Assembly: GCA_038063515.1 (NCBI GenBank)
Contig: JBBTUY010000006.1
Span: 26,505 to 90,504, forward strand
DNA from: Patescibacteria group bacterium
GTDB lineage: Bacteria > Patescibacteriota > Minisyncoccia > Phycocordibacterales > UBA9973
Direction: 5' to 3'
Length of the DNA: 64,000 nucleotides
The position numbers and the translations under genes were made by a program. Below the pieces are notes generated by a model. The model saw nothing but the letters and a program-made list of their open reading frames with translations, ran no database searches and had not been told where the DNA came from. Numbering within the stretch: position 1 is the stretch's first letter; each line of letters opens with the position of its first letter. Positions 9,232 through 60,954 of this stretch are shown here, in pieces.

Positions 9232-9328
9232 AAAATATAATTTTTGGAGGGGTCTCGCGGCTGTCGAGCTGAGAGTTTCAGGATTTTTTAAGCTTCAAAA
9301 AATCTGTACCGGAAAAAATTGATATTTT
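9232..9328 (+). repeat. Intergenic structured repeat (family S, copy 1) in the polA/gspE divergent region
   Basis: Matches TTTTTGGAGGGGTCTC-[hairpin]-GAGAGTTTCAGGATTTTTTAAGCTTCAAAAAATCTGTACCGGAAAAAATTGAT, closed by the local inverted repeat aaaatataatttt / aaaattgatatttt. Confidence 0.8.
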
Positions 9329-9371
9329 ACAGGTTTCATAATTTACCAACTTAAGCTATAATTTATCTATT

Positions 9372-11069
9372 ATGAGTGATTTTGATACAGAAAAAGAAAA
9401 TAAACAAATAGACGATATCCATAAACAAGAGGAGGAGGAGCTCGTGGCCATGCTTGCCGAGTCAAAATATGACCTCCCATACATAAACCTCTACAACACA
9501 AAAATAGACAACGAAGCCTTGAGAGCAATACCCGAAGAAGAAGCAACGAAAATGAATGTGGCGCCATTTAAACTTTTTGGTAAAAAGATTTTCATAGCTG
9601 TCCGCTCTCCCAGCCCCGAGCTTTTAAAAGAGTTAAGTGATATGGCTGAACGTAAAAATCTAACTCCAGAATTCTACATGGCAAGCAGTAGCAGTCTAGA
9701 GAAAACTTGGGATAGATATAAAGAAATTTCAATGGCTGAAAATACAAGAGTTGGAGGTCTTGATATCTCAGCAGAGATCTTACGAGATACAGCTAAGGAC
9801 ATACAGCACATAGGAGACATTGAGAAGCTAATTGCTACCACACTCAAAGAAAAAGAAACTCATAAGATCTCTCGCATCCTAGAAATAATTTTAGCAGGTG
9901 CCATAGCAGTGAAAGCCTCTGATATACACATAGAGCCAGAAAAGGAGCGTGGGAGATTGCGCCTAAGACTCGATGGAATACTCCAAGACATAATCTTTTT
10001 TGATTTAGATACATATCATTTACTGAACTCAAGAATTAAATTAATCTCACAATTAAAATTAACATCAAAAATAGCCCAAGATGGAAGATTTAATATCATC
10101 GAAAGCGATGAAGAGATAAGCATACGCGTATCCCTCATCCCTGGTGCGTACGGCGAGGCTATTGTCATGCGTATCCTTGATCCGAAATCCATCCAAGTAA
10201 ACATCGAGGAATTAGGAATAGAAAAATACCTTTTTGACATAATACAAAAAGAAATAATTAAACCAAACGGACTCATACTCGTCACAGGTCCTACAGGCTC
10301 AGGTAAAACAACGACTCTGTATGCATTCCTAAGGAAAATATATTCTCCAGAAATAAATATAATAACCATAGAAGACCCAGTCGAATACCACCTTGCAGGC
10401 ATAACCCAGACACAGACAGATGTGAAAAAGGGCTACAATTTCCCTGAAGGACTTCGCTCAGCACTTCGTCAAGATCCTGACGTCATGATGGTCGGAGAGA
10501 TACGTGATGATGAGACAGCAGAGATAGCAGTGCAATCCTCCCTCACAGGACACATGGTCTTCTCTACGCTTCATACGAACAACGCAGCTGGAGTCATCCC
10601 CCGCCTGATAGACCTCAAAGTAAATCCTAAGATATTAGTATCTGCACTTTCATTATCTATAGCTCAGAGACTCGTCCGCAAACTTTGCGCATCTTGTAAG
10701 GTTGAAAAAATATTAAATGAAGAAGAATCTAAAGTTATAAAACTCGTAATGGATAGTATTAAAGACGAAGGCAAAAGCTTGTCTAACTACAACATAAATC
10801 CTGACGCACCCATAAAAGTATTTAACGCTGTGGGTTGTGCTGTATGCAACAACATAGGGTATGTAGGAAGATTAGGAATTTTTGAAGCTATTAAAACAGA
10901 CGAAAATATAGAAAAAATAATTTTACAAAACCCAAGTGAGAGAGAAATTAAAAAGGTGGCCCGCACTCAAGGCATCCTCTCCATGCGTCAAGATGGCATA
11001 GTTAAAATCTTAAACGGCGTGACCTCTATGGCCGAGGTGCAGAGCGTGGTGGATTTATTAGAAGAATAA
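9372..11069 (+). CDS. Type II secretion/type IV pilus assembly ATPase, GspE/PilB family
   Basis: 565 aa with Walker A LVTGPTGSGKTTTLYA, Asp box, Walker B and His box (..DVMMVGEIRD..HMVFSTLHTNNA). The C-terminal tetracysteine is CASC..CAVCNNIGY. The N-terminal T2SSE_N-like domain has KYDLPYINLYN. Confidence 0.85.
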   Translation: MSDFDTEKENKQIDDIHKQEEEELVAMLAESKYDLPYINLYNTKIDNEALRAIPEEEATKMNVAPFKLFGKKIFIAVRSPSPELLKELSDMAERKNLTPEFYMASSSSLEKTWDRYKEISMAENTRVGGLDISAEILRDTAKDIQHIGDIEKLIATTLKEKETHKISRILEIILAGAIAVKASDIHIEPEKERGRLRLRLDGILQDIIFFDLDTYHLLNSRIKLISQLKLTSKIAQDGRFNIIESDEEISIRVSLIPGAYGEAIVMRILDPKSIQVNIEELGIEKYLFDIIQKEIIKPNGLILVTGPTGSGKTTTLYAFLRKIYSPEINIITIEDPVEYHLAGITQTQTDVKKGYNFPEGLRSALRQDPDVMMVGEIRDDETAEIAVQSSLTGHMVFSTLHTNNAAGVIPRLIDLKVNPKILVSALSLSIAQRLVRKLCASCKVEKILNEEESKVIKLVMDSIKDEGKSLSNYNINPDAPIKVFNAVGCAVCNNIGYVGRLGIFEAIKTDENIEKIILQNPSEREIKKVARTQGILSMRQDGIVKILNGVTSMAEVQSVVDLLEE

Positions 11070-11396
11070 AATTATAAAGAAAAACATATTGAGAGAGAAT
11101 GTAAACCTGAAAATTAGAAATAAAAAAAGCATTAATCTCTAAACAATCCTTCCAGGACTGAGCCCCGAAAGTAATAAATTATTATAGGATAGCACCAGAA
11201 GATAATAAAATCACCAGAACGTCCTACGCAAATTTATATAACCTTAATAGCTGATTGCTTAGAGATTAATGCCTTCTTTTTCACACCAAAGAATTGTACT
11301 ACATAGAAATATTAACAAGTGCTATACTGTGTATAGCTATGTTGATACCATGTTGATAAACTCTTTATTTTCATACTATAGCATACTATTTAGTTA

Positions 11397-12404: not shown

Positions 12405-12410
12405 AAAAAA

Positions 12411-12569: not shown

Positions 12570-12778
12570 CCAAGCTGACGAGAACGTCAGCTTGGCTCTT
12601 GGTTGGACCTCAGGATGTGTAACACATCAGCTGAGCCTAAGTTGTCTAAATCGACAACTTAGGCTCAGCTCTCCTCGGCCTCTTCCATTTCAAATGGAAG
12701 AGGCCGATCGAGGTCTCTTGGCTCGATCGGAATAACATTCATGATTTTCTCCTTTCGAACCCAAAGGGGTTCGAAAAA
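12570..12778. other. Cluster of five consecutive strong hairpins (candidate structured RNA or palindromic repeat cluster) between ruvB and ruvC
   Basis: Perfect or near-perfect stems at 12570-12595 (ccaagctgacg..cgtcagcttgg), 12630-12669 (17-bp stem gctgagcctaagttgtc..gacaacttaggctcagc), 12677-12705 (ggcctcttccattt..aaatggaagaggcc), 12705-12731 (ccgatcgag..ctcgatcgg) and 12755-12778 (ttcgaaccc..gggttcgaa). The region is GC-enriched against an AT-rich background. Confidence 0.5.
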
Positions 12779-13553: not shown

Positions 13554-13688
13554 ATGAGTTACGATGAAGAAGAAAAGTTAGATGAAGAAGGAGTTTTTAA
13601 GATGGATGACGATGATGGATTAGATGACATGCCAGAAGGCTTTGTAGATGATACTGACAGCGACGATCCTGACGATAAATTCCACTAA
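13554..13688 (+). CDS. Candidate small acidic protein (44 aa, highly Asp/Glu-rich)
   Basis: MSYDEEEKLDEEGVFKMDDDDGLDDMPEGFVDDTDSDDPDDKFH, ending directly at a strong terminator hairpin. No clear SD sequence. Confidence 0.2.
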   Translation: MSYDEEEKLDEEGVFKMDDDDGLDDMPEGFVDDTDSDDPDDKFH

Positions 13689-13720
13689 AACAAAACACCC
13701 CTAGAGGGGTGTTTTGTTTT
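13687..13720. terminator. Bidirectional intrinsic terminator (shared with the tyrS 3' end)
   Basis: aaaacaaaacacccc-tag-aggggtgttttgtttt is a perfect GC-cored stem with A/T tracts on both sides. The tyrS stop codon overlaps the stem end. Confidence 0.6.
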
Positions 13721-20462: not shown

Positions 20463-20609
20463 GGATCTATAATACCCTATTTACAGGGTAGAGGAAAATT
20501 TTTAATCTTATTAACTATGTTGATAATCTGTGGATAAAAAAGTTAGGGGTGTATATATTTATTGTTTTCCTCTCTTGATAATTTATTAATATTATTGTAG
20601 TATCTAAAT
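20463..20609. promoter_or_regulatory. dnaA upstream region with a perfect DnaA box (second oriC candidate and dnaA promoter)
   Basis: tgtggataa at 20529-20537 is TTATCCACA on the reverse strand. The surroundings are AT-rich, with ttgataat repeats. Confidence 0.5.
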
Positions 20610-20744
20610 ATGTCACAAACATACCAACCTAAAAAGAGAAAAAGAGCTAGATCTCACGGTTTTCTCGTTAGATCCCGAACTAAAACTGGCAGTAATGTCC
20701 TAAAGCGAAGACGTCAGAAAGGCAGAAAAAAGCTTTCTGTGTAG
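20610..20744 (+). CDS. rpmH: 50S ribosomal protein L34
   Basis: [44 protein letters not shown] (44 aa). It lies in the canonical position upstream of rnpA and is below the ORF-track size cutoff. Confidence 0.85.
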
Positions 20745-20751
20745 CATTTAA

Positions 20752-22069: not shown

Positions 22070-22547
22070 TCAAGAAATTGAAAATTTAATAAAAGAATTA
22101 ATTGAAAAAACTAATATAAAGATACAGAAGATTTCTGTTATTCCTGATACCATGAATAACACATGGTTTGCTGTTGATGTTGATGAACCACACTTCTTTA
22201 TAAACAATGAAGGTGAGGCATTACAAGCCTTAAATCACCTTGTTCGTAGGTTGGTAGAGAATAAGATGTTTTCAAATAAAACTGACGCTCTTAACGACAC
22301 GAGAAACAGCATCCTCATTGATATCAATGATTTTCAAAAGAAAAAAGTAGAAAGTGTGCGTGCTATTGCTCACATGATGGGAGAGCGCGCTAAATATTTC
22401 AAAGCAAATGTAGAAGTTGATCCTATGTCTTCTTTTGATCGAAGGATAGTACATGAATTTCTCGCTAATAGAGAAGATCTAAAGACAGAGTCTGTCGGCC
22501 TTGGCCCTACTCGTCGTGTGGTTATTAAATACGTAGGCGTAATTTAG
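22062..22547 (+). CDS. jag: Jag/KhpB-like RNA-binding protein (KH plus R3H domains)
   Basis: 161 aa following yidC with a 8-bp overlap. The C-terminal R3H-like region is SSFDRRIVHEFLANREDLKTESVG. Confidence 0.75.
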   Translation: MNNQEIENLIKELIEKTNIKIQKISVIPDTMNNTWFAVDVDEPHFFINNEGEALQALNHLVRRLVENKMFSNKTDALNDTRNSILIDINDFQKKKVESVRAIAHMMGERAKYFKANVEVDPMSSFDRRIVHEFLANREDLKTESVGLGPTRRVVIKYVGVI

Positions 22548-22550
22548 ATT

Positions 22551-22652
22551 AAATAAAATAATTTTTGGAGGGGTCTCTCGGCTGCCCTGCCGAGAGTTTC
22601 AGGATTTTTTAAATTTGAAAAATCTGTACCGGAAAAAATTGATTTTATTTAA
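22551..22652 (+). repeat. Intergenic structured repeat (family S, copy 2) between convergent jag and the T4SS-like operon
   Basis: tttttggaggggtctctcggctgccctgccgagagtttcaggattttttaaatttgaaaaatctgtaccggaaaaaattgat. The internal hairpin arms differ from copy 1 but still pair (ctctcggc/gccgagag). The closing inverted repeat is aaataaaataattttt / aaaattgattttattt. Confidence 0.8.
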
Positions 22653-22658
22653 TCTAAA

Positions 22659-24068
22659 TTACCTTAGTTTAAGCTCCCAGAGAATTGAATCTTTTTTGTT
22701 TACAAAAAATAAATAGTCTTCGTATGCACTAAGTGAAAGTTTTATACCATCAGTCTCTACCCCACCTAATTCTAATATAGGATCTACAAGCACAGTATTT
22801 TTTACATCTTTAATACCTATTTTCCATATCTGGTCTTCAAATGAAGCCTCTCCTTGATACCATGCATCTGGATATGTTAATCCAGGGATTGATTTAGGTA
22901 CTGCACAATACACATACTCACTTGTCTTGTTCCACACACATTTTTCTGGCAGTGTCCTTACTCCGAGTGCTGTGGAAGCCTTTGTTTCTGTGTTGTAGAC
23001 GTTTAAGGATAGATTGCTATCACTATACAATACAAGCTTGCCTGTGGGGCTCGTGAGTGTGGTGAGTCCATATATATCACCTAAGACTCTAGTGAAGCTC
23101 TTTTTATCTACATCGAGTGCATACATGTATCCAAGAACGATACCAGATGGTTTAGTTGTAAGTGTGACACTTTTACTACTTGGCCAGAAAGACAACCATT
23201 CAGTGAAGCTCGAATCAAATATTTGGCTCTTTTTACTATCTCTTAAATTTAAAATATTACCAACAATAGAATTAGAAACATTTGTTAGATAAAATATTTT
23301 AGATTGATCGGGAGATGGACTTATGTCTTGTATGTTTTCAGTTAAAAATATTCCTTTTGTTTCAATAATTTCTCCATCAGCTCCAAGCTTTTCTTTTGGT
23401 AGCTGTCCTAGGAAAGTCTCTATCGTAACACCGTCCCCTTTTAATCGTCTCATGACTACAGACTCTCCATGGTTTCCAAAATAAGCATCATATATTTTAG
23501 GTATCACAGTACTAGAAAATTTTATCTCTTGTATTTTGTCTATGAAAGTTTGATAAATGTTTCCAGTTGAACGATCCACATATCTAAGTGCTTCCATAAA
23601 TTCTGTTGGCGCAGGTGCTGGAGTTTTATTTATTACTTTTTTTACTTCAGGTTTTACCTCAACTTTTCCCGAGGGTTCACCTTGGGAGGTTGTGGTTGTA
23701 GAAGTTTGATTTTCTGTAGCGGGAGTTAATGGTGTTTCTATGACAGGTATTTCTTTAAATCTTTCTTTCATAAATATAGTAAATCCAGCAATAGGCATAG
23801 ATGAAACTTGTTTTAGTTTGGCCACTATCTCTACTTCATCAGGGTTTTCTTGTAGGTCTCCATTTTCATCTACAAATGGAGGGTTGGCTTCGTCTTTTTT
23901 ATTATCATCACTTCGAAATGGGTTAAATTGTGAGAGAAAATTTATCCCCTCACTTACAGGATTGTTATCCCCTTCTCCATTATCTTTGGCAAAATATGAA
24001 AAGCTAAAAAACGCAAGTACTGCGAGAGTTAAAGTTATTATTAAAATTAAAATACTTTTTTTAAGCAT
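22659..24068 (-). CDS. Secreted/membrane-anchored hypothetical protein (469 aa), last gene of the T4SS-like operon
   Basis: N-terminal hydrophobic signal/anchor (ILILIITLTLAVLAFFSF) and a Thr/Pro-rich linker. No recognised catalytic motif. Confidence 0.5.
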   Translation of the reverse strand: MLKKSILILIITLTLAVLAFFSFSYFAKDNGEGDNNPVSEGINFLSQFNPFRSDDNKKDEANPPFVDENGDLQENPDEVEIVAKLKQVSSMPIAGFTIFMKERFKEIPVIETPLTPATENQTSTTTTSQGEPSGKVEVKPEVKKVINKTPAPAPTEFMEALRYVDRSTGNIYQTFIDKIQEIKFSSTVIPKIYDAYFGNHGESVVMRRLKGDGVTIETFLGQLPKEKLGADGEIIETKGIFLTENIQDISPSPDQSKIFYLTNVSNSIVGNILNLRDSKKSQIFDSSFTEWLSFWPSSKSVTLTTKPSGIVLGYMYALDVDKKSFTRVLGDIYGLTTLTSPTGKLVLYSDSNLSLNVYNTETKASTALGVRTLPEKCVWNKTSEYVYCAVPKSIPGLTYPDAWYQGEASFEDQIWKIGIKDVKNTVLVDPILELGGVETDGIKLSLSAYEDYLFFVNKKDSILWELKLR

Positions 24069-24071
24069 AAA

Positions 24072-25100
24072 TTAAAAATTACATTTACGAGCTGCTCCCC
24101 ATGTCGGATACCATCTTCCTCTTTGTTCTGATAATAATTTTTGTGCAAAAGCTATATTAACTGCAGGGTTGTTCACATAGTTAGCACATCTGAGATATCC
24201 TTCTCTTCCTCCATTAGGTCCATCTGCTCTACAACTCTTATTTCCTGCTGTAAATTTACCTGTAAATACACCCCTACAAGCTGGAATTTCATCAGCATGA
24301 GCTACAATATTTATTTGAAATAATCCTATAGAAGCACTTGACCCATCTGCGCATATGTCTGTTCTACTGGGTTGATTTAAGCCACTACTTTCTCCCTGAC
24401 ACACACAGGATGCTTGGGTAGGATTTGAAAATCCAGCTTCTTGCATTTTTGCTATACTACAATCTCCTTTTGTTGCTGGCTGACCATTAAAATTACCTCT
24501 CCGATTTGCTTCATTTATACGATTTTGTTCATAGTTCGCTTCTTTTCTTATATCAAACTCTTTAATTTCAACTGTTAATGTTGTTTCTTCTATCCCTATA
24601 TCTAAATTAAGTAAATCAGGATTTATTTGATAAAGAATGACCCAAGATCCGAGAGCAAGGAGGAGGCCTAGGATTGCGTGCTGTATTTTCTCTAATCCGT
24701 CCGCTTTATTCCCTGGTAGCTCGCTCGTCATGTATTCCATACCTCCCATCACTATCATAACCACAGCAAGTACAGCACATATTCCTATAAATAATTGCAT
24801 GCCTAGATTGAGATACTTACTGAGTGCATTTGGATCTTCAGGGTCAAAACTTGTGAGTAGTTTACCATCTGTTCCGGGTAGTGGTTGGAGGAATTTGTAA
24901 CTTGTGTCAGTTGGTAGAGGTTTATTAGTTCCTGGTTCAAAATTTTGATTTTTACAAGGTGAATTATTTGGTACTGTAGTGACAAAATTATCAAAAGTAC
25001 AAGGCTCATTAGGATTTGTGGCTGACGCATTTATATCTTTTACAGAAAAAAAGGATCCGACCAGTATTATTATAAAAATGTATGTTAAAATTTTCTTCAT
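24072..25100 (-). CDS. VirB1-like lytic transglycosylase (GH23/SLT-like C-terminal domain) with an N-terminal signal and a hydrophobic hairpin segment
   Basis: 342 aa. The C-terminal CQGESSGLNQ...SIGLFQIN resembles the SLT catalytic Glu-Ser and GLMQ signatures. The central segment LGMQLFIGICAVLAVVMIVMGG..GLLLALGSWVILY is two adjacent TM helices (pilin/VirB2-like topology). Confidence 0.5.
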   Translation of the reverse strand: MKKILTYIFIIILVGSFFSVKDINASATNPNEPCTFDNFVTTVPNNSPCKNQNFEPGTNKPLPTDTSYKFLQPLPGTDGKLLTSFDPEDPNALSKYLNLGMQLFIGICAVLAVVMIVMGGMEYMTSELPGNKADGLEKIQHAILGLLLALGSWVILYQINPDLLNLDIGIEETTLTVEIKEFDIRKEANYEQNRINEANRRGNFNGQPATKGDCSIAKMQEAGFSNPTQASCVCQGESSGLNQPSRTDICADGSSASIGLFQINIVAHADEIPACRGVFTGKFTAGNKSCRADGPNGGREGYLRCANYVNNPAVNIAFAQKLLSEQRGRWYPTWGAARKCNF

Positions 25101-26089
25101 TAAAATTCTACAGTTATTGTTTTATTTGCTGTTTCTAAAATCTGGTATTTGTTTTCTATTTCTAATTTTAATCTAGAGATACCAGACACACCCTCTTCTA
25201 TCTTAAGCGGTATTATATTTTTTCTATATCCTACTATGTCTACTATCTCGTCATTTATATACCAAGTCCAAGCTAGTTGTGGACTATGTATTTGTTTTGG
25301 TGAAATAAAGTACGGCTCTGCTATTATTACTTCGTTGTCTTGTATTTGATGCCTGTCACGTAGAGCTTGCTCCCATAGAGTTCCTAGGAGAGGATCATTT
25401 CTATAAAAAGAAATTTTAGGAGACACCACTCCTATATCCATATTTTTCTTAGTTGAATACAATCCATCCACTGTGGATGCTATAACCTCTATGTTGTCAC
25501 TGTCTTCTAGGTAGTCATTTGTAAATGTGAAAGAATTCTTTCCATAACCAGAACCCTCAGCATCATTGTTGTAGTTTTTTTTCCAAGAGTAAATCATGTT
25601 TTTAGGACTTATGATTCCAGCTTTGTTTTTTATTTCAGGTAATGCTGTTACCTTTATCTCGCTGTCAGCTGTAGGGAGAGCTTTACCACGGTAAAATGGT
25701 GGTACATATGAGTTAGTTGCCTGCCAGAGCATTATCATGGTTAATGGCTTTGCTACTACTACCTTTTCTATTTCACCATCAGGGAGAGATATGACTGCTC
25801 TTATTGTTGTCTCGCTACCATTTACTGGGGTTGTTGTAGAAAAAGTTTTCTGACCTATTTGAGATGATATTTTTTTACCATTTACGTACCATGATATGAG
25901 TGTGCCGTCTAAGCTGGCTACATAGCTACTTACTGTTATAGACACACTTTCCCCAGCCTTAGGATTTTCTGGTGACATGTTTATGGATATAGCTGTGGGC
26001 GATACAGCAAAAGTTTTAACCGGTACTGTGTATACAGCAATAAATAATATAATAAATATATTTGCTACATATGTAAGCTCTCTACGCAT
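25100..26089 (-). CDS. Secreted hypothetical protein (329 aa)
   Basis: N-terminal signal/TM helix and beta-rich composition. It shares a junction base with the downstream gene at 25100. Confidence 0.5.
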   Translation of the reverse strand: MRRELTYVANIFIILFIAVYTVPVKTFAVSPTAISINMSPENPKAGESVSITVSSYVASLDGTLISWYVNGKKISSQIGQKTFSTTTPVNGSETTIRAVISLPDGEIEKVVVAKPLTMIMLWQATNSYVPPFYRGKALPTADSEIKVTALPEIKNKAGIISPKNMIYSWKKNYNNDAEGSGYGKNSFTFTNDYLEDSDNIEVIASTVDGLYSTKKNMDIGVVSPKISFYRNDPLLGTLWEQALRDRHQIQDNEVIIAEPYFISPKQIHSPQLAWTWYINDEIVDIVGYRKNIIPLKIEEGVSGISRLKLEIENKYQILETANKTITVEF

Positions 26090-26114
26090 TTTCTAATTGT
26101 ATAACAAAAAGTGA

Positions 26115-27977
26115 CTAAAGTCTCCCCTCTTTCATGGTTTCCTCGTAGTCTTCTTTTGCTTTTCTGTTTGACAATATTTGAGATGGATCTGATGTGATGA
26201 TCTGGTCTTCGGTGTAAGACGCTACTATTTTTATAGCTACGTGCTTGAGCCCAGCAAAGAATATCCCTTCACCTACCCCTGACTCTAAGAGGAGGTACTT
26301 TTCTTCATCTGTTAGGTTGAATGTCTTCTGGAGTACGTCTATGGTCGTAGGCGACTGTTTTAGGAGTATTTGAATTGAGGAGTTTGTAACTATAGGCACT
26401 CCGTAGGGAGATTTCATAAAGTCTGCAGCGTCTTGAGTAATGGTTGCAAGGCCTAAATAGTATTTTCTTCCTCTTTTAGCAATAGAGTATAAAAATGAAG
26501 CTGTGTCTTCTGATTTCATCATCCACCACGCTTCGTCTACTATGAGCAGACGCTTTTTTAGATTTTTCCTTATAGCATTCCATATATAATGCATGATTAT
26601 ATACATTGCTACTGGTTTTAACTCATCTTCCATGTCACGAATAGAGAAAACGACAAACTTTTTGTTTATGTCTACGTTACTGGGTCTGTTTAAAAATGTT
26701 GACCATGAGCCTTTTGTATATTTTGCGAGCCTAGAAACCACAGAATCACTTCCATCTATTCCAGATAATACCATTTCAAAATCTGAAAGAAGTGGCGGCT
26801 CTATGTTTGCAAAATTTGATTCTGGTGTTATGTCTTTTAATGCATATGTTTCAGATATTGCATGGTCGACTATAGAGTCTTCTTCTGGAGTAAGTCCTCC
26901 TAACATAAGTCTAAAGAGTCCTACTAAGTTTATTATGTTTGACCGGAGTACGTCTTCTGCTGTCTCGTCTTCTCTTGGAATTGGTAGGTCAAAGGGGTTC
27001 ATGTGGTGGTCTGATGATAGAGAAATATTAAAATATCTACCTCCCACAGCTTCTGCGAGGAATTCGTATTCCCTCTCTGGGTCTATGACTATAATGTCTA
27101 TATCAAACATAAGAGATCTTAGTATTTCTAATTTTGTTGCGTAAGATTTACCAGATCCTGATTTTGCAAATGTTACAGAGTTGTAGTTTTCAAGAGAAAA
27201 TCGATCAAAAATAACGAGGCTTGAATTATGTCTGTTTATACCATAAAGTATGCCGTTGTCTGACGTTAAGTCGAAAGAAATAAATGGGAAAACACTAGAG
27301 AGAGGCTCTGAATTTAATTTTTGGTGTATGTTTAGTAAGTCTGTGTTTATGGGGATGACACTTTTAAATCCTTCTTCTTGTTGAAATAATGCTGGTTTTA
27401 TATAGATTAAACGAGACTCTAATATTGATTTGATTTCATTTTCGATCTTAAATAGTTCTAAATCATTGTCTGCATATATGGTAATGTATATTCCCATATC
27501 AAACATTTTCTCTTGAGCTTGAATGAGACTATCACGAAGACCTTCGAGGTCATCGTATGCAGTATCGAGCATTGGATCACGCACCATTCCTTTTGTTTGT
27601 CTCACACTTATCTGACTCTGTACTTCAGCTACCTTTTTTTGAAACTGTCTGAGCACAAGAGAAGTATCTATTGGATGAATAAATATTGAAATATCAAATA
27701 CTTTGTCTAGGTTTATGATCGGAGAGAACCAGTTGTCAGTAAGGTATCTAGGGTATGAGATTATGAAAAACGTACGAGCTATCTTCTCTCCTAAGTTTAT
27801 AGCTTTAGGTTCTATTTTAAGTGCTGATGGAGCTATGATGTCTTGTAACTCTAAGCTCGCTGCTTCATATATCTGCTCAGGCAGGATATTTAAAGTAGAG
27901 ACTTCTGTCTCTTTCACCATTTGTTTATCTGGAGCTAGCGGTGTTTTTTTAGCGAATAATTTTTTAAAAATTTCCAT
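26115..27977 (-). CDS. VirB4/TrbE/CagE-family type IV secretion ATPase (main body, 620 aa)
   Basis: Walker A is FAKSGSGKSYATK and Walker B is KRLLIVDEAWWMM. The upstream conserved VirB4 segment is IARTFFIISYPRYLTDNWFSPII. It begins 4 nt after the stop of the 27982..28620 ORF, in a different frame. Confidence 0.8.
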   Translation of the reverse strand: MEIFKKLFAKKTPLAPDKQMVKETEVSTLNILPEQIYEAASLELQDIIAPSALKIEPKAINLGEKIARTFFIISYPRYLTDNWFSPIINLDKVFDISIFIHPIDTSLVLRQFQKKVAEVQSQISVRQTKGMVRDPMLDTAYDDLEGLRDSLIQAQEKMFDMGIYITIYADNDLELFKIENEIKSILESRLIYIKPALFQQEEGFKSVIPINTDLLNIHQKLNSEPLSSVFPFISFDLTSDNGILYGINRHNSSLVIFDRFSLENYNSVTFAKSGSGKSYATKLEILRSLMFDIDIIVIDPEREYEFLAEAVGGRYFNISLSSDHHMNPFDLPIPREDETAEDVLRSNIINLVGLFRLMLGGLTPEEDSIVDHAISETYALKDITPESNFANIEPPLLSDFEMVLSGIDGSDSVVSRLAKYTKGSWSTFLNRPSNVDINKKFVVFSIRDMEDELKPVAMYIIMHYIWNAIRKNLKKRLLIVDEAWWMMKSEDTASFLYSIAKRGRKYYLGLATITQDAADFMKSPYGVPIVTNSSIQILLKQSPTTIDVLQKTFNLTDEEKYLLLESGVGEGIFFAGLKHVAIKIVASYTEDQIITSDPSQILSNRKAKEDYEETMKEGRL

Positions 27978-27981
27978 ATAT

Positions 27982-28620
27982 TTATTCTAATTTAATCTTC
28001 CCTTCTACTTCCCCTGGATTAAAGACTTTGTAGAATACCTCTATCACTTCTTCGGTGCCCAAAAGAGCTGATTTTATACCACAACGGCTAAGACCCTGCT
28101 GTATGACACCCACTCTCTGTTCTAGCTGTGACTTCTTTTCTTCGAAGTCTTCCTGTTTCCTCAGTAGTTTTTCTTCTTTACTCTTTCTCTTAAATATTCT
28201 ATCTAGTATACCTTCATCTGATTTTAAAACATTATGAGAATACGGGACTATAATAAAGAAGCTTTTAGTCATTATGTTTACAGATTCTGTAAAATTCATA
28301 ATAAAATTTATGTATTCTTTGGTCTGCAGTTTAAGTAATGGTTCACTCTGTACTTTCATTCTATTTTCTAAAAGTAAAATGTATGGCCTTATGTCTAGTT
28401 TCCTTGATTGTACTGATATTTGAATAGTAAAATCTAAAGTGTTTAGGAAATTTTGAAATTGAAATATTGTAGCTTTTTGCTCATCTGAAGATTTTAGCGA
28501 AAGGTTCACTGAGTTTGCAAGGACTATGGCTCGCAAGCCACCGTCTTTTAGCACAATGATTCCATCGCGTACTTCTTTTATGGGTACAAATTCTTGTGTT
28601 GCTTTAGCTTTTAATGCCAT
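27982..28620 (-). CDS. VirB4 N-terminal-domain-like protein (212 aa), apparently the detached N-terminal part of the ATPase
   Basis: FVPIKEVRDGIIVLKDGGLRAIVLANSVNLSLKSSDEQKATIFQFQNFL matches the pattern at the extreme N-terminus of VirB4/TraE-type ATPases. Together 212+620 = 832 aa, the usual VirB4 size. Confidence 0.45.
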   Translation of the reverse strand: MALKAKATQEFVPIKEVRDGIIVLKDGGLRAIVLANSVNLSLKSSDEQKATIFQFQNFLNTLDFTIQISVQSRKLDIRPYILLLENRMKVQSEPLLKLQTKEYINFIMNFTESVNIMTKSFFIIVPYSHNVLKSDEGILDRIFKRKSKEEKLLRKQEDFEEKKSQLEQRVGVIQQGLSRCGIKSALLGTEEVIEVFYKVFNPGEVEGKIKLE

Positions 28621-28660
28621 TTATATATTGTATACTATTTTTACCTAAAAATTCTTAAAC

Positions 28661-29095
28661 TTACTTGTTTATTTCGTGTTTACTTAAATCAAGTACGTCC
28701 AAACTCCATGCAAGGTCTCTAAGCTTACTTTTGTTTAATCGTGGATTGCTTACCGACAGTGCCACCTCCTTCTCTTTTTTTGCAGCCTCAATCGTTTTAT
28801 TTGGATTTACTTTATTTTGGCGTCTTTTCCAAATATACAATTTACTTTGTAGTCCATATCTGAGCCCTGCTTCAAGCATTTCTATAAATGGCTTGTTGTT
28901 TGGCTTATAGAATGTGAGCGTCAGAGAAAATCCAGCTACGGCAAGCATAGGCACTAACCCTAAAAGTAAGCCTAGTAATTCGTAAATTACAAAACACATT
29001 CCCGCCCCGCCTGCTAGATATATAAATTCTTTAAAGGTAAATGGACCAAAAATTTTGTCTTCTACTTCTAAAAATTGTGGTACTTTGAATTGCAT
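28661..29095 (-). CDS. Small two-TM membrane protein, VirB3/TcpE-like by size, topology and position upstream of VirB4
   Basis: 144 aa with the hydrophobic hairpin FIYLAGGAGMCFVIYELLGLLLGLVPMLAVAGFSLTLTFY. Assignment is by context only. Confidence 0.35.
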   Translation of the reverse strand: MQFKVPQFLEVEDKIFGPFTFKEFIYLAGGAGMCFVIYELLGLLLGLVPMLAVAGFSLTLTFYKPNNKPFIEMLEAGLRYGLQSKLYIWKRRQNKVNPNKTIEAAKKEKEVALSVSNPRLNKSKLRDLAWSLDVLDLSKHEINK

Positions 29096-29124
29096 ATTGT
29101 TTTATTTATGGTGAGCTTACTCTG

Positions 29125-29892
29125 CTATTCGTCCGGTGAGAGACGATACGGATCCCCTTTGGGCGGATAGGACACTCTTACTTCTTCTTTGTTTTGTCCG
29201 CTTACCTTACTCTCTTTCTTTGTTTCAGTTGTTCCTATTGTGTATTCTGTTTTTGTTGTGGGATTTTGTACTGATGTTGCTATCTTTTCTTTGATTAATG
29301 GGTGAATACCTCCACTTACTGTATTTAAATTATTATTTATAGGTGTTGGCTCTGGATTCTCTACCATTTTTAAGGTGTCCTCTCTTTCCTCATTAGTAGC
29401 TTTTTTTATTTTTATTCCTTCTTCTACGTCTGGTTCTATTCTCGGATTGATTTTTATACCTGTTGATTCTAGTATGTCGTTATCAACTTTTTTTATTTCT
29501 TGTTCTATTTCAATACTTTGCTCTGGTTTCGGCTCAGCTTTTTTAGTAAAACTATTTTTTCTTTCTGTGATTTGAATCATCTCCTCTTTTATCTTTTTAA
29601 AGATAGACTCATTTAGTTCATGTGTTAATTCTTGTGCAGATGCTTCAGATATATGCATTTTTTCCGCTATTGTCTTGGTGTACTCGTGTGGATTTAATAG
29701 TCCACAGAGTAATAATTCTGTTTCTAATTCTAAGTCCCCGAGTTGTTCAAAATCATACCCTTTTGTTTCACGTAATTTTAAAAGGGCAGCCCTCCAGTCT
29801 ACTTGCGCAATAGCATTTAGGGTGTCTTCGGGCAATTTTGCTTTTGCCTGTTCTATTTTTATTTGTAGTGATGCGGGTATGTTGTTTTGCAT
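29125..29892 (-). CDS. Hypothetical protein (255 aa, hydrophilic, no TM)
   Basis: Operon member with no recognisable motif. Confidence 0.4.
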   Translation of the reverse strand: MQNNIPASLQIKIEQAKAKLPEDTLNAIAQVDWRAALLKLRETKGYDFEQLGDLELETELLLCGLLNPHEYTKTIAEKMHISEASAQELTHELNESIFKKIKEEMIQITERKNSFTKKAEPKPEQSIEIEQEIKKVDNDILESTGIKINPRIEPDVEEGIKIKKATNEEREDTLKMVENPEPTPINNNLNTVSGGIHPLIKEKIATSVQNPTTKTEYTIGTTETKKESKVSGQNKEEVRVSYPPKGDPYRLSPDE

Positions 29893-29901
29893 TTATGTAT
29901 T

Positions 29902-30429: not shown

Positions 30430-30446
30430 ATTTTTAGCTAAATTAA

Positions 30447-32846: not shown

Positions 32847-32858
32847 TTTATTAATTTT

Positions 32859-35060: not shown

Positions 35061-35072
35061 TTTTAAAAATTT

Positions 35073-46191: not shown

Positions 46192-46647
46192 ATCTACTGC
46201 TTCTCTCAGTTTACCTGAGGTAGATTTGCCGAATGATACGACTTCTACTTGTATGCCTATGGTTTGTAAATATTCTACGAGTGGTATGAAGTCTCCGTCA
46301 CCAGAGATGATGACTACAGAGTCTAGTCGTGAAGACATCTTGATGGCATCCACTGCAAGTCCGACGTCCCAGTCTGCTTTTTTGCTTCCACCAGCAAAGA
46401 TTTGTAAATCTTTTGTTTTTGTTTCTATGCCGAGCTTGCCTAATGCTTCAAAAAAGTTCTTCTCATCCCCTGCTTCTGTGGTGATGACGTATGCGACGGC
46501 GCGCACGAGCTTTCTGCCTGCCACGGCTTCTTTTAATACTGCACCAAAATTCACTCGTGCCTTGTATAAGTTGCGAGCACAGTGGTATAGATTTTGAGTA
46601 TCGATGAAAACACCAACTCTTTGTTCTTTATGTTTTATTACTGTCAT
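46135..46647 (-). CDS. NYN/LabA-like domain protein (predicted RNase)
   Basis: 170 aa. VGVFIDTQNLYH...DWDVGLAVDAI...IISGDGDFIPLV are the LabA/NYN conserved acidic residues. Confidence 0.8.
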   Translation of the reverse strand: MTVIKHKEQRVGVFIDTQNLYHCARNLYKARVNFGAVLKEAVAGRKLVRAVAYVITTEAGDEKNFFEALGKLGIETKTKDLQIFAGGSKKADWDVGLAVDAIKMSSRLDSVVIISGDGDFIPLVEYLQTIGIQVEVVSFGKSTSGKLREAVDDFVDLGENPRKYLIGTSR

Positions 46648-46685
46648 AGTTTGATTGTATCAATAAGGTATAAGTAAAGCAAAAA

Positions 46686-46807
46686 TAATAAGATTTCCGA
46701 AAACCGAAATTTTTGTCGGTACAGATTTTTTGAAGTTTAAAAAATCCTGAAACTCGCGGCTCGACAGCCGCGAGACCCCTTAAAAATTTGTTTCCGGAAA
46801 TCTTATT
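46686..46807 (-). repeat. Intergenic structured repeat (family S, copy 3, long form, inverted orientation)
   Basis: The reverse complement contains ttaaggggtctcgcggctgtcgagccgcgagtttcaggattttttaaacttcaaaaaatctgtaccgacaaaaatttcgg. The closing inverted repeat is aataagatttccgaaaac / gtttccggaaatcttatt. Confidence 0.8.
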
Positions 46808-46857
46808 ATTTTTGCCTAACGTAAAAACCATACTACATGTAGTATGGTTTTTCTAAG

Positions 46858-48140: not shown

Positions 48141-48265
48141 AAAATAAGATTTACAAAAACCGAAATTTTTGTCGGTACAGATTTTTTGAAGCTTAAAAAA
48201 TCCTGAAACTCGCGGCTCGACAGCCGCGAGACCCCTTAAAAATTTGTTTTTGTAAATCTTATTTT
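48141..48265 (-). repeat. Intergenic structured repeat (family S, copy 4, long form, inverted orientation), directly downstream of the recombinase gene
   Basis: Same core as copy 3 (about 95% identical). The closing inverted repeat aaaataagatttacaaaaac / gtttttgtaaatcttatttt differs from copy 3 but still pairs. Confidence 0.8.
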
Positions 48266-56122: not shown

Positions 56123-56124
56123 CA

Positions 56125-56375: not shown

Positions 56376-57125
56376 ATGACAACAATATATTTATATAGCT
56401 TTGCAAGCGTTATTGTGGTGAGCCTGATTTCTCTTGTTGGGGTTTTTACACTCTCATTAAAAGAGAAATTTATGCGTAAATACATCTTTGTATTTATTAG
56501 TGTTGCTGTGGGGGCATTATTAGGAGATGCATTTATACATCTTATTCCTGAAGCTTTTGAGATTTCAAATAATCAAATCCTAACAAGTATTTTTATTATT
56601 GCAGGAATATTTTTCTTTTTTAGCTTGGAGAAATTTCTGCACTGGCATCACCATGGTGAAGATGAAGGTGAGACAAGTGTGCATCCTATGGGAAAGCTAT
56701 TACTTGTGTCTGATGGTGTGCATAATTTTATTGATGGTGTAGTTATCGGGGCGAGTTTTCTTGTGAGTGTGCCTGTCGGTATAGCTACTTCTATAGCTGT
56801 TATTCTACATGAAATTCCTCAAGAGATAGGGGATTTTGCTGTACTTATGCATTCAGGATATTCTAAAGGTAGGGCACTTTTCTTGAATTTTCTTTCAGGC
56901 ATCTTTTCAGTATTTGGTCTTGTGTTTTTGTTTACGATACAAAATGTATCAGAGATTGCTGAGTTTGTTTTCCTGCCACTTGCTGCAGGGGGATTTATTT
57001 ACATAGCTCTCGCTGACCTCATACCTGAGCTTCATAAAACAAAAGAGGTGAGGCATTCTTTACTCCAACTATTTTCTGTTATTGTCGGAGTTTTGTTTAT
57101 GGTTGGTTTGCTTTGGTTGGAATAA
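56376..57125 (+). CDS. ZIP family metal cation transporter (ZupT-like)
   Basis: 249 aa with 8 TM helices and the conserved HNFIDGVVIGASF and HEIPQEIGDFAVL motifs. Confidence 0.8.
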   Translation: MTTIYLYSFASVIVVSLISLVGVFTLSLKEKFMRKYIFVFISVAVGALLGDAFIHLIPEAFEISNNQILTSIFIIAGIFFFFSLEKFLHWHHHGEDEGETSVHPMGKLLLVSDGVHNFIDGVVIGASFLVSVPVGIATSIAVILHEIPQEIGDFAVLMHSGYSKGRALFLNFLSGIFSVFGLVFLFTIQNVSEIAEFVFLPLAAGGFIYIALADLIPELHKTKEVRHSLLQLFSVIVGVLFMVGLLWLE

Positions 57126-57238
57126 AATAACAAAGACACTTTTTGGAGGGGTCTCTCATCTGGCGAGATGAGAGTTTCAGGATTTTCCAAGCTTCGGAAA
57201 ATCCGTACCGAAAAAAAGTCGGTCTTTGTTATTTTATT
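57121..57238 (+). repeat. Intergenic structured repeat (family S, copy 5) between convergent ZIP and M23 peptidase genes
   Basis: The core has hairpin 1 tctcatct-ggcg-agatgaga and hairpin 2 gattttCC-aagcttc-GGaaaatc (a double compensatory change relative to copies 1-4). A 24-bp site-specific closing inverted repeat is aataaaataacaaagacac / gtcggtctttgttattttatt. Confidence 0.8.
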
Positions 57239-57245
57239 TCATGTA

Positions 57246-58337: not shown

Positions 58338-58748
58338 ATAAAATACCGCAAGATTTCCTTTCTAGCCCAAAATTTACATAAGAAAATAAGGGTAGAATTG
58401 CAGGACGACCATATTTATATAGTGCTGCACTCGCCAAAGGCGATAAGGTTCTTACGATGGTTACTATCTTTACAGGGTTTCGGTGGGGTCTGTCGGGCTC
58501 CTTTACGGGGGTATGTATTAAGGGTAGTTCAATTCACCTACCAAGTCAACCCAAATGTGGATAACTTTATTTTGACTGATTTTTGTTTTATTGTGTAATA
58601 AATAGGTTAAAAATTTGTATTTTTGAGTTAAAAGTGGTAATGTAAGGGTACTTATAAATTAATTTGTTCGTATTTAGACATATAGTAGTGTTCTTATTGA
58701 ACAATACTCCAGTCTGGATACGAGCTCTACCCATTTGGGTTTAAAAAC

Positions 58749-60866
58749 ATGCAAAAAAAGGAATATTCTGTTGAGGTAGGAGGCAAGACGCTTACAGCTA
58801 TCTTTACTGATCTCTCAGATCAGGCTCATGGGTCTGTAATGCTAAAATATGGCGATAGTGTGGTTATGGCTAATGTCTGTATGTCTAAGGACAGCCAGGC
58901 AGGGCTCGGGTATTTCAACCTTACAGTGGACTATGCAGAGAAGTTTTATGCCGCAGGGAAAATCCTCGGCTCACGTTTTGTACGAAGAGAAGGGAAGCCT
59001 TCTGAAGATGCAATTCTTGCAAGTCGTGTCATAGATCGTACTCTTCGTCCGCTCTTTGACCAGTCTATACGTCATGCAGTGCAGGTGATTGTGACTGTGA
59101 TCGCAGTTGATGACAATGATCCTACTATCCTTGCTGTAAATGCGGCATCTCTCGCACTTGCAGTATCAAACATCCCTTGGGCAGGGCCTATTGGATGTGT
59201 ACGTATTGGAAAGTATGACAGTGACGAGCTTGTTATAAATCCTTCACAGAAACTACGCCAAGATGATTCTACATATAAATACGACCTCACTATCTGTGGT
59301 AAAGACGGAAATATAAATATGATCGAGGCTGCAGCTCACGAAACTACAGAGGAAGAGCTTGCTGAAGCATTTAAAAGAGCAAGTATTGAGATAACAAAAT
59401 TAGAAAATTTCCAGAAAAGTATTGTCAAAGAAATAGGTAAAGAAAAAAGAGTGATAGAAAAAGGCACGATCAGTGCTGAGTCTGTAAAGCTTTTTAATGA
59501 AAATATAAGACCTAAGATGGAGAAAGCTATTTTCTCTGGTCCAGGTAAAAAGGAAATAGATGAGTTACACACTATATGGAACAATTTAGTGCGTGAAACA
59601 TTTACAGAGCAAAAAGATTTCTCCCATGAAGACAATTTATTTGATGATACAGAAAATGAAATCCTGCATAAGAAAGCAATAGAGGACAACAAAAGAGCAG
59701 ACGGAAGGGATATGGATGGACTTCGTGATTTGTATGCACAGGCAGGAGGAGTGTCTTCAGTGTTACACGGTTCCGGTATTTTTTACAGAGGGGGGACACA
59801 TGTACTTTCTGTGCTTACTCTCGGTGGACCAGAAGATAGAAACCTCGTAGACGGTCTACAGCTCAAAGTAGAAAAAAGATTTATGCATCACTACAACTTT
59901 CCTCCGTATTCTGCGGGAGAAGTCGGACGATCTGGTTTTACTAATAGACGAGAAGTAGGCCACGGTGCACTTGCAGAAAAGGCTCTCGCTATGGTGCTTC
60001 CCCCCGTTTCTGAATTTCCATATACTATAAGACTCGTATCTGAATCTATGGCATCAAATGGCTCTACTTCACAGGCTTCTATCTGTGCATCAATACTCGC
60101 ACTCATGGATGGAGGTGTACCTATAAAGGCACCAGTCGCTGGTATTGCTATGGGACTCATGTATGAGAGCGATGATAAATACAAAGTGCTCACTGACATT
60201 CAAGGTCCCGAAGATCACCATGGTGATATGGATTTTAAAATTGCTGGTACACGTGCGGGCGTCACAGCTATACAGCTCGATGTAAAAGTAGAGGGCGTGC
60301 CTATAAAGATTCTTTACGAAGCAATGGTGCAGTCTAAAAAAGCTAGATTTAGTATCATTGATGCAATAGAAAAAGAAATTCCTAGTCCACGTACTGAGAT
60401 ATCTTCTAATGCTCCTAAAATTTTAATAATAAAAATATTCCCAGATCAGATCGGAATGGTGATAGGTGGCGGAGGTAAAAATATAAAAGAATTAAAAGAA
60501 AAGACAGGAGCCGAGATAACAATTGAGGATGATGGAACTGTGTACTTTACTGGTAAAGACGGCTCTGCCGAAAAAGCACGAGACATGGTACTCGAGATGA
60601 CGCATGAGTTTAAAGTAGGGGAAATGCTCTCAGGTGAAGTTGTGAAAGTTGCGGACTTTGGTGCGTTTGTGAGACTCAATGCTTTTTCTGATGGACTTGT
60701 GCACATTTCTGAGATGGCACCATTTCGTGTTGAGAGAGTTTCAGATATAATAAAAGAAGGAACAATCGTGCCCGTGAAAGTTATCAAAGTTGATAGAGAA
60801 AACGGAAAGATAAGTCTATCTATCAAAGAGGCAAATATTGATTTCTTTAAAAATATTAAAATATAA
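58749..60866 (+). CDS. pnp: Polyribonucleotide nucleotidyltransferase (PNPase)
   Basis: 705 aa with two RNase PH domains, a KH domain (IPDQIGMVIGGGGKNIKELKEKTGA) and a C-terminal S1 domain (GEVVKVADFGAFVRL). Confidence 0.95.
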   Translation: MQKKEYSVEVGGKTLTAIFTDLSDQAHGSVMLKYGDSVVMANVCMSKDSQAGLGYFNLTVDYAEKFYAAGKILGSRFVRREGKPSEDAILASRVIDRTLRPLFDQSIRHAVQVIVTVIAVDDNDPTILAVNAASLALAVSNIPWAGPIGCVRIGKYDSDELVINPSQKLRQDDSTYKYDLTICGKDGNINMIEAAAHETTEEELAEAFKRASIEITKLENFQKSIVKEIGKEKRVIEKGTISAESVKLFNENIRPKMEKAIFSGPGKKEIDELHTIWNNLVRETFTEQKDFSHEDNLFDDTENEILHKKAIEDNKRADGRDMDGLRDLYAQAGGVSSVLHGSGIFYRGGTHVLSVLTLGGPEDRNLVDGLQLKVEKRFMHHYNFPPYSAGEVGRSGFTNRREVGHGALAEKALAMVLPPVSEFPYTIRLVSESMASNGSTSQASICASILALMDGGVPIKAPVAGIAMGLMYESDDKYKVLTDIQGPEDHHGDMDFKIAGTRAGVTAIQLDVKVEGVPIKILYEAMVQSKKARFSIIDAIEKEIPSPRTEISSNAPKILIIKIFPDQIGMVIGGGGKNIKELKEKTGAEITIEDDGTVYFTGKDGSAEKARDMVLEMTHEFKVGEMLSGEVVKVADFGAFVRLNAFSDGLVHISEMAPFRVERVSDIIKEGTIVPVKVIKVDRENGKISLSIKEANIDFFKNIKI

Positions 60867-60954
60867 ATTTTGGAGGGGTCTCTCATCTGGCGAGATGAGA
60901 GTTTCAGGATTTTCCAAGCTTCGGAAAATCCGTACCGGAAAAATTTGATATTTT
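60858..60954 (+). repeat. Intergenic structured repeat (family S, copy 6), immediately after the pnp stop
   Basis: About 97% identical to copy 5 across the core. The closing inverted repeat is aaaatataaatttt / aaaatttgatatttt. Confidence 0.8.

Follow-up and report, generated by a model that had tools for sequence, protein, structure and literature searches.

The 64,000-nucleotide stretch of a Patescibacteria contig analysed here (JBBTUY010000006.1, positions 26,505 to 90,504; hereafter the window) carries six copies of a double-hairpin repeat, and on balance these copies probably represent a family of short, non-autonomous, hairpin-forming selfish mobile DNA elements of Patescibacteria, similar to MITEs (miniature inverted-repeat transposable elements), repetitive extragenic palindromes (REPs) and Rickettsia palindromic elements (RPEs). 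A mobile-DNA origin is favoured because the copies occur in mixed orientations and some of them lie in divergent promoter regions, because orthologous sites were found filled, empty or filled inversely, because copy number is very uneven between the sampled stretches of assemblies, because the outer stems are near-perfect without a G-U strand bias, and because a longer variant at one locus (L039) has kept its termini and changed its interior. Mobile DNA is usually said to be scarce in the tiny genomes of Patescibacteria, or Candidate Phyla Radiation (CPR) bacteria. An earlier note on this DNA had considered a small RNA, a REP- or MITE-like mobile element or a recombination site; the mobile element is favoured here, while the other two are less supported. 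The earlier note saw intergenic copies only, and the family is part of a larger set of elements which also occur in-frame inside genes.

The window contains the 15-mer GAGTTTCAGGATTTT exactly six times, and a covariance model run on the window scored the six copies listed in the earlier note at 89-104 bits (E ~1e-23 to 1e-28) and detected no seventh full copy, which gives a density of about one copy per 10 kb. In a regular-expression census with GGGTCTC and GTACC as bounds the core had a constant length of 61 nt, and of 60 nt in copy 2. Copies 1 (9223-9337; core 9250-9310), 2 (22539-22662; core 22571-22630), 5 (57118-57241; core 57149-57209) and 6 (60849-60963; core 60876-60936) lie on the plus strand, and copies 3 (46671-46823; core 46718-46778) and 4 (48141-48265; core 48174-48234) on the minus strand. 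The core is enclosed by arms at 9223-9245 and 9315-9337 in copy 1, where they extend imperfectly outward, by arms of 28 nt in copy 2 and 34 nt in copy 3, and by perfect 20-nt arms in copy 4. All six copies are intergenic and the family has no open reading frame (ORF) of its own. Two reading frames of the core contain no stop codon, so that gene callers predict small spurious proteins across copies, as at 46628-46831 (minus strand) and similar positions of the window and in the case of 'hypothetical protein A2W67_00345' of a Nomurabacteria genome (P0247).

The genes named as neighbours in the earlier note (pnp, jag/R3H, the ZIP gene, xer and rpsO) were identified correctly. Its placement of the copies after gene 3' ends holds for several of them, which abut stop codons, but not for copy 1, which lies between polA (minus strand) and a PilB-like ATPase gene (plus strand), two genes that start divergently. 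The arms of copy 2 take up the whole interval that separates the jag(R3H) gene from a convergent gene of the type IV secretion system (T4SS) cluster and overlap both stop codons, and those of copy 5 occupy the spacer of the convergent ZIP and LysM/M23 peptidase genes. Copy 3 is located 3' of rpsO and of the separate palindromic terminator that rpsO itself possesses (46825-46852), and 5' of the NYN gene. Copy 4 starts 2 nt past the xer stop codon and is antisense both to xer and to the next gene, which encodes a methyltransferase. In copy 6 the left arm and inner arm form the last codons and the stop codon of pnp, and the next gene begins 9 nt past the right arm; the pnp product ends here in FFKNIKI, as compared with FFKKV or FFKKA in relatives, which is consistent with an insertion at the stop codon without proving it.

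Each of the six copies folds into a long outer stem and a three-way junction bearing two hairpins; relative to dinucleotide-shuffled sequences the folding energies have z-scores between -3.8 and -9.7, and folding of the reverse strand is nearly as good as that of the forward strand. The arms of hairpin 1 vary among the copies yet pair inside each copy, as the earlier note had described, apart from one G.A mismatch in copy 1. The double compensatory change that it had seen in hairpin 2 (TT/AA to CC/GG) was found in copies 5 and 6, but the loop, which it had given as AAGCTTC, is AAATTTG in copy 2, and in copy 3 it is AAACTTC. Searches beyond the window yielded 16 additional copies from other Patescibacteria assemblies, and together with the six copies of the window these were used for a covariation alignment of 22 distinct copies. 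Across the 21 core pairs of this alignment 94% of the cells were standard pairs and 11 of the 21 showed both-sided changes; the observed covariation score was reached by none of 500 shuffles, and pairing dropped to 31-56% when the 3' partner was shifted by one to three columns. Both hairpins, and likewise the closure by GGU/ACC, are thus genuine traits of the family.

A tandem G.A/A.G mismatch in hairpin 1 persists in 11 of the 22 copies. It may be ancestral, in which case the variants CTCTC/GAGAG, CTCGC/GCGAG and TTGAG/CTCGA at pairs 22-37 and 23-36 would be different ways in which it was repaired, and copy 1 would be an intermediate in which only half of the repair has taken place. Due to the fact that G.A and G.T pairs are tolerable on the GGGGTCTC strand alone, the alignment suggests that this is the strand which folds, be it as DNA or as RNA. 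The earlier note had taken the covariation as a sign of a selected structure. The covariation itself is real, but it is no proof of a selected RNA, because the stems are near-perfect Watson-Crick helices without an excess of G-U pairs, because paired double changes are also present in arms located in coding regions (in the pcrA genes of loci L029 and L030, whose PcrA proteins are ~95% identical), and because template switching is known to create hairpins and to keep them paired (PMC8794818).

The closing stems are layered, with an inner A/T layer (TTTTT../..AAAAA) in all copies, a subfamily layer, and an outermost site-specific layer. One subfamily layer is common to copies 3, 4, L020 and L039, another to copies 1, 2 and 6 and the three copies of L013, and the shared part of the stem contains a conserved bulge of 1-2 nt. 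The statement of the earlier note that each copy is enclosed by an outer inverted repeat unique to its locus is correct for the outermost 8-15 bp only; the inner layer is shared, and copies 3 and 4 have most of their stem in common. In the flanks beyond the 89-nt modelled unit the mean local pairing score was 12.5 with the partner of the same copy and 5.6 with the flanks of other copies. Among ~600 pairs of the closing stems 29 were G-U pairs on one strand versus 32 on the other, the stems being otherwise near-pure Watson-Crick, which would be expected of young DNA palindromes and not of RNA helices drifting via G-U intermediates. The subfamily termini AAACAAATTTTTAAGGGG .. CCGTACCGNCAAAAATTTCGGTTT are common to copies 3 and 4, L020, L039-1 and the longer L039-2. 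This longer L039 variant has the same termini (AAACAAATTTTTAAGGGG .. CCGTACCGACAAAAATTTCGGTTT) and a different interior; conserved ends around an interior that varies are typical of MITEs.

When 185,579 species genomes were scanned with a strict exact pattern, a single true relative emerged, L006, in a metagenome-assembled genome of Saccharibacteria, the remaining matches in this collection being rejected as chance matches. Scanning of metagenomes gave nine loci, all in aquifer samples, of which L013 contains three copies in 14 kb. A translated-core search of protein space returned eight small spurious ORFs which led to the further loci L039, L042 and L043, and no in-frame copies of the double-hairpin core family were found by it. 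In L039, which matches a Nomurabacteria genome from Rifle, the copy lies upstream of ftsK, in L042 it lies in the dnaA-rpmH spacer, and the copy in L027 is diverged. One or two copies in ~20 kb were present in each of L039, L042, L043 and L027, and zero in the sampled stretches of L024, L025, L031 and, the pcrA copy aside, L029. The rpsO-NYN spacer is filled in the window, filled in the opposite orientation in L027/L028, and occupied by an ordinary or different hairpin instead of the repeat in L024 and L025; the dnaA-rpmH spacer is filled in L042 and empty in the window, with DnaA proteins that are 82% identical.

The position of copies relative to gene ends, which the earlier note had wished to see mapped, is mixed. 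In about 10 of 19 copies the start is no more than a few bases away from a stop codon, and several copies occupy the spacers of convergent genes; the sites of copy 1, L006, L013c, L015, L018, L039 and L042 are either upstream of genes or between divergent ones. With respect to the abutting gene ~6 copies are in sense and 4 in antisense orientation, and copy 4, L017, L021 and L027 are antisense to the upstream gene.

Relatives of the family were located by an inverted-repeat scan of the window. A divergent relative at 40497-40624 (plus strand), which was missed by the covariance model, is intergenic and combines an identical hairpin 1 (GGCTGACGAGCCGAGA) with another second hairpin (GCTGGCATAGCAATGCCAG) and its own closing arms of 34 nt. 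A sister element at 39328-39443 (minus strand) with perfect 16-nt arms and the hairpin 1-like sequence GGCTGAGGAGCCGAGAG lies in-frame in the pcrA/uvrD ORF 38418-40520, at residues ~367-398, and in comparison with PDB entry 1pjr the PcrA protein of the window has ~33 extra residues exactly at this element. The 5' module (GGGGTCTC plus hairpin 1) is common at the nucleotide level to the sister elements and the intergenic family, and the start of the pcrA copy of L029, CGGGGTCTCTCGCAGGCTGACGAGCCGAGAGG, corresponds to the 5' half of the intergenic elements. Of 24 PcrA orthologues most have an insertion at the site of the pcrA element, with the conserved peptide RG(L/V)SQADEPRGSA…DSDP, and 5 do not. 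When a profile of the insertion peptide was searched against 1.84 billion representative proteins at a threshold of E 0.001 or better, 31 proteins matched, and the peptide was found inside RrnaAD/KsgA, TGT, TsaD, PAP2, HHH_3 (ComEA-like) and phosphoribosyltransferase-like proteins as well as at a second site of PcrA.

The pcrA element is informative about the origin of the arms. Its GGGG-side arm GACAGTAGTGCAGGTTTGTCT encodes DSSAGLS, the counterpart of DSSADVFS in the L031 orthologue, which at that place has neither insertion nor palindrome, and the other arm AGACAGAACCTGCACTACTGTC is the reverse complement of GACAGTAGTGCAGGTTTGTCT and encodes extra residues. Since one arm matches L031 and the other is its reverse complement, the gained part would be the core together with an inverted copy of the upstream flank, the 5'-side arm presumably being ancestral coding sequence. 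The only direct repeat seen at this copy is the 4-nt TGTC. Comparison of L029 with L030 showed that L030 has lost 39 + 26 nt of the core and kept the arms, and that one arm pair has changed from C-G to T-A, synonymously on one side and non-synonymously on the other. The same two proteins (P0122 and P0145) differ by a second indel of 10 residues (NVPTKVEDPRL..) at residues ~571-583, which may be another small insertion of the same kind.

A second family, family B (core GGTCTGGCYGGGGTAGGGG..), is likewise found inside genes. Its uvrA copy (902-986; core GGTCTGGCTGGGGTAGGGGACCCAGAGAACCGAGGACC on the minus strand) has site-specific 23-nt arms and lies in ORF 3-1841 (minus strand), which extends past the start of the window; in UvrA it constitutes an in-frame insertion of ~28 residues in comparison with solved UvrA structures. 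The polA copy (8170-8270, 26-nt arms, in the polA ORF 6772-9189 on the minus strand) is translated as ..FSRVLGSPGPLPRPDQLQNF.. and is located in the linker that joins the 5' nuclease domain to the polymerase domain, which is unalignable there. A peptide resembling the latter, VLGSPGPYPGQ, was seen at a different site in the PcrA of other lineages (P0139, P0201 and P0216).

For the mobile elements a mechanism can be proposed. The copied unit would comprise the 61-nt core (GGGTCTC, hairpin 1, GAGTTTCA, hairpin 2, YGTACC), the A/T-rich inner arms and the subfamily arm sequence, and would fold as single-stranded DNA of the GGGGTCTC strand. On or after entry into a site, the 3' end or nascent strand would fold back and copy the 5'-side flank, the outcome being flank X, the element and an inverted copy X'; a perfect site-specific stem would be seen at every copy because flank X is copied by this fold-back. 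Hairpin-templated synthesis, by the quasipalindrome or template-switch route, would keep the arms and core hairpins complementary, and the apparent compensatory changes would arise because such synthesis keeps the hairpins paired. At copies that abut a stop codon, a secondary role of the long hairpin as a bidirectional transcription stop or 3'-end protector is conceivable and would be a by-product. The facts on the pcrA arms and the paired change between L029 and L030 fit fold-back or template-switch synthesis, in which one event copies an arm or flank onto its partner. Creation and maintenance of hairpins by template switching at replication has been proposed (PMC8794818), and quasipalindrome correction by template switching has been studied in Escherichia coli (PMC7202029). 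Taken as a whole, an undescribed mode of moving DNA in Patescibacteria, with a single-stranded double hairpin, fold-back priming on the flank, inverted target duplication and no dedicated transposase, in which the process also re-symmetrises palindromes and lets relatives colonise spacers and, in-frame, pcrA, uvrA, polA, ksgA, tgt and tsaD across the phylum, is put forward tentatively, as a possibility on which we would not yet rely.

Several observations weigh against mobile hairpin DNA or its proposed mechanism. Neither a transposase nor a RAYT or other partner gene was found by Pfam scans of the window ORFs, and a RAYT gene was present neither in the window nor in the examined relative loci. 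A direct target-site duplication is not visible, the flanks being reverse complements, and the polarity of the flank duplication is taken from one in-ORF sister element. The nearest relatives available for empty sites of copies 1-6 are only ~77-82% identical in conserved proteins, and in copy 2 both outermost arm ends overlap ancestral or conserved gene ends, which makes the origin of the arms ambiguous. About half of the copies abut a stop codon, as a terminator would. The unpaired core bases (AGGGG, UUUCA and the AAGCUUC loop) are strongly conserved, and only one strand tolerates the tandem G.A and the G.T pairs; either observation would also fit an RNA or a protein-binding role. Moreover, very frequent templated correction should have erased the tandem G.A mismatch, yet half of the copies keep it. 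Given how strongly the unpaired core bases are conserved, the element may bind a protein or act at the RNA level, for instance as a terminator or 3'-end protector.

If the role at the RNA level were the primary one, the family would be a cis-acting structured RNA, i.e. a Y-shaped 3'-UTR terminator, a protector of 3' ends against PNPase or other exonucleases, or a small RNA, and the covariation would reflect selection for pairing. This is considered unlikely, although the start of about half of the 19 copies near a stop codon, the convergent spacers, the 94% pairing with 11 double-changed pairs, the tandem G.A and G-U pairs, which are favourable on just one of the strands, and the highly conserved unpaired junction and loop bases speak for it, as does L027, where a hairpin directly 3' of rpsO is followed by a T-run at the place of an ordinary terminator in relatives. 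The mixed orientation to flanking genes, including the four copies antisense to the upstream gene, argues against the terminator or 3'-UTR role envisaged in the earlier note as the primary one, as do the seven upstream or divergent locations and the position of copy 3 behind a separate canonical rpsO terminator. U-tracts after the stem are inconsistent, and a simple terminator scan passed over the long hairpins and called only the small ACCGA..TCGGT hairpin within copies 3-5. The closing stems lack a G-U bias, and sister elements are situated inside coding sequence, in which a hairpin of 30 bp would hardly be of use. No Rfam family matched: at the gathering threshold Rfam 15 identified five tRNAs only in the whole window, and copy 5 searched with permissive filters gave chance-level matches only (E at least 0.46). 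Hammerhead, twister and other ribozyme junctions and domain V of group II introns, considered by eye, were rejected: junction strands of 0 nt, UUUCA and GU are incompatible with them, and no Rfam model matched.

Mobile elements that choose hairpins as targets are known, IS1397 or IS110-type elements inserting into REPs and class C group II introns into terminators. A mobile core inserting into the loops of pre-existing palindromic terminators, whose old stems would now be the site-specific stems, would account for the many copies located exactly at expected terminator positions, and long perfect A..T-flanked palindromes appear to serve as terminators here and in relatives (46825-46852, 12629-12670, 13687-13720, and 3' of rpsO in L024). 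It explains many intergenic copies, but neither those in divergent promoter regions, where a terminator is unexpected, nor those in genes: the in-ORF sisters have perfect arms of 16-27 bp in coding sequence, and L031, which is without the insertion, has no palindrome. L030 could pass for arms that have not received a core but is most simply a deletion derivative, as its nearest relatives carry the core, and the spacer downstream of pnp in L027 measures only 20 nt and is hairpin-free. Hairpin targeting is accordingly regarded as quite doubtful. A double-stranded protein-recognition or recombination site, with hairpin 2 (9-7-9: GGATTTTTT-AAGCTTC-AAAAAATCC) as a Xer core site or the whole as an attC-like folded substrate, is highly improbable. 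The geometry of hairpin 2 is that of a tyrosine-recombinase core site with a near-invariant stem sequence, a conserved extrahelical base on one arm recalls attC, and copies 3 and 4 flank xer in direct orientation. However, hairpin 1 varies freely in sequence with its pairing kept, unlike half-sites, there are neither cassette arrays nor attC R/L boxes, and no recombinase was found near the other four copies or any copy elsewhere. The link between Xer and copies 3 and 4 pointed out in the earlier note appears coincidental: this Xer is a housekeeping protein, and the same neighbourhood exists in assemblies without copies. As the cognate enzyme Xer was rejected, being ~75% conserved across Paceibacteria, with an rpsO/NYN synteny that is unchanged in repeat-free assemblies.

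A phage origin was also rejected. The full pattern and the hairpin 2 module gave zero matches in scans of viral contigs, and the seven viral-contig matches of a hairpin 1 17-mer, all with 55-68% GC and without the element architecture, were due to chance. In the literature searched no prior description of such elements in Patescibacteria was found.

Several further observations were made on assemblies that carry or lack the repeat. Assemblies fragment at the element: two short-read contigs with rpsO and xer break exactly inside copies, L023 (1422 bp, from the window's own species) at both ends and L028, which corresponds to L027, at its 5' end. Other hairpin elements occur at 5085-5205 and 8065-8155 of L025 (both minus strand; folded, Y-shaped) and, read by eye only, at 12336-12403 of L042. 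These are located in spacers downstream of pnp, rpsO and jag and have GC-rich cores (e.g. CCCCTCTCCTTATTAAGGAGAGGGG) in local stems, which suggests that several unrelated core families have a common architecture. At 9950-10130 of L042, an imperfect pair of ~24-nt arms (CTAAGTCACTTTGAATTACAAAACTC / GAGTTTCGTAATTCACGACTTAAG) lies beyond an internal loop outside perfect 15-bp arms, and this palindrome appears to have grown outward in layers.

In the window itself, the pilB-like/ruvB spacer (11122-11279) contains a 27-nt inverted repeat, 89% complementary and with arms 104 nt apart, which has a long closing stem and an interior unlike that of the other families. Palindromes with loops of 2-6 nt at gene ends are perfect over 15-18 bp at 12629-12670, 13687-13720 and 46825-46852, and at 1910-1950 a 19-nt palindrome is 84% complementary. 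These stems are unusually long for intrinsic terminators; they could serve this lineage as ordinary bidirectional terminators, or the process that forms the element palindromes could have left them as products or footprints.

The window has a GC content of 35.7%, and its Xer and PcrA proteins show 75-80% identity to many genomes of Paceibacteria/Nomurabacteria type. Its housekeeping genes comprise uvrA, uvrB, polA, the pilB-like ATPase gene, ruvB, ruvC, tyrS, a gene for a penicillin-binding protein (PBP), dnaN and dnaA, followed by rnpA, yidC, jag and the T4SS-like cluster; ksgA, pcrA, a YafQ/RelB pair, the NYN-domain gene, rpsO, xer, a gene for a CCA-adding enzyme, five tRNA genes, the ZIP transporter gene and pnp are also present. 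The T4SS-like cluster (22659-35978, minus strand) comprises genes for a TraG-like ATPase, PrgI-like and T4SS-pilin-like proteins and several proteins without a Pfam match, and its synteny next to jag is kept in L029, L031 and L042. The dnaA-rnpA interval (20463-20751) is the probable oriC region; it contains a block with a DnaA-box-like sequence (..TGTGGATAA..), 88% conserved with L042, which is followed by a short rpmH (L34) gene that is absent from the 100-aa ORF list. In a test of copy orientation against replication the GC-skew profile tracked the gene strand, without a clear origin switch.

A dense palindromic family whose relatives are translated in essential repair, replication and RNA-modification proteins would be a CPR counterpart of Rickettsia palindromic elements, and CPR genomes would carry RPE-like in-frame insertions. 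Such elements would give rise to insertions in proteins, to breaks in assemblies and to spurious calls of small ORFs, and their site-specific inverted flanks, which are unusual among bacterial repeats, would point to fold-back or template-switch synthesis shaping these genomes. They would also provide a concrete case in which textbook compensatory covariation need not mean a functional RNA, which would be relevant for RNA-motif discovery pipelines.

Among known systems, Rickettsia palindromic elements, reportedly described by Ogata et al. in 2000, come close. To our knowledge, site-specific perfectly complementary flanks are not a described feature of RPEs. Like RPEs (mentioned in PMC1779305 and PMC10969869), the elements described here are short (~100-150 bp), palindromic, dispersed repeats of small, AT-rich, reduced genomes without a transposase of their own. 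RPEs are found in intergenic positions and in-frame in housekeeping genes, where they add a surface peptide, and here in-frame positions are likewise seen in the sister elements (pcrA, KsgA, TGT, TsaD and PAP2) and in family B (uvrA and polA). In contrast, the six copies are all intergenic and none is an in-frame gene insertion; the host phylum also differs, and the likeness is one of kind, not of compared sequence.

Palindromic mobile repeats of organelles are GC-richer double hairpins in AT-rich compact genomes, occur in spacers and occasionally in coding sequence, have no known enzyme and are assumed to be selfish. Such repeats, namely fungal mitochondrial double-hairpin elements, GC clusters and the palindromic repeats of Volvox (PMC2670323, PMC5910586), resemble the present family in their GC-richer double hairpins in an AT-rich compact genome and in their spacer and occasional coding sites, but the latter is located on a bacterial chromosome, is unrelated in sequence and has long site-specific closing stems.

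In common with bacterial MITEs (Correia/NEMIS, RUP, ERIC and Nezha; PMC10969869) the family is a small, non-coding, dispersed, patchy multi-copy unit (six copies in 64 kb, 22 distinct copies overall) with imperfect terminal inverted repeats conserved between copies, a variable interior in the case of the L039 variant, and long hairpins which often stand at gene ends and may affect transcripts. It differs from MITEs in that the flanks are inverted copies and not a direct target-site duplication, in that the conserved part is a branched tip and not only the termini, and in that no parent insertion sequence (IS) with matching ends was found among the window ORFs. With the REP, BIME and REPIN sequences mobilised by RAYT (PMC3733652) it shares dense extragenic palindromes in both orientations, often past stop codons, which are thought to act as folded single-stranded DNA and may stabilise mRNA or terminate transcription. 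Instead of a single palindrome of 20-40 nt with a GTAG or CGTC head, however, it has a 61-nt double-hairpin core beginning with GGGGTCTC, and it has site-specific outer stems and no RAYT in the window.

Integron attC sites and Xer/dif sites were also compared. The base of the hairpin is the variable part here, the copies are scattered in both orientations among housekeeping genes, and hairpin 2 is a 9-7-9 palindrome in comparison with the 11-6-11 organisation of dif, with adjacency to xer at copies 3 and 4 only. Quasipalindrome or template-switch mutagenesis (PMC7202029, PMC8794818) accounts for one-step inverted copies and for one-step 'compensatory' correction of arms; it is a mutational mechanism, not an element family, and leaves the arrival of the core at new loci unexplained. 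In its behaviour the family would thus be a selfish palindrome of the MITE, REP or RPE type, whose unusual trait is the inverted duplication of its flank.

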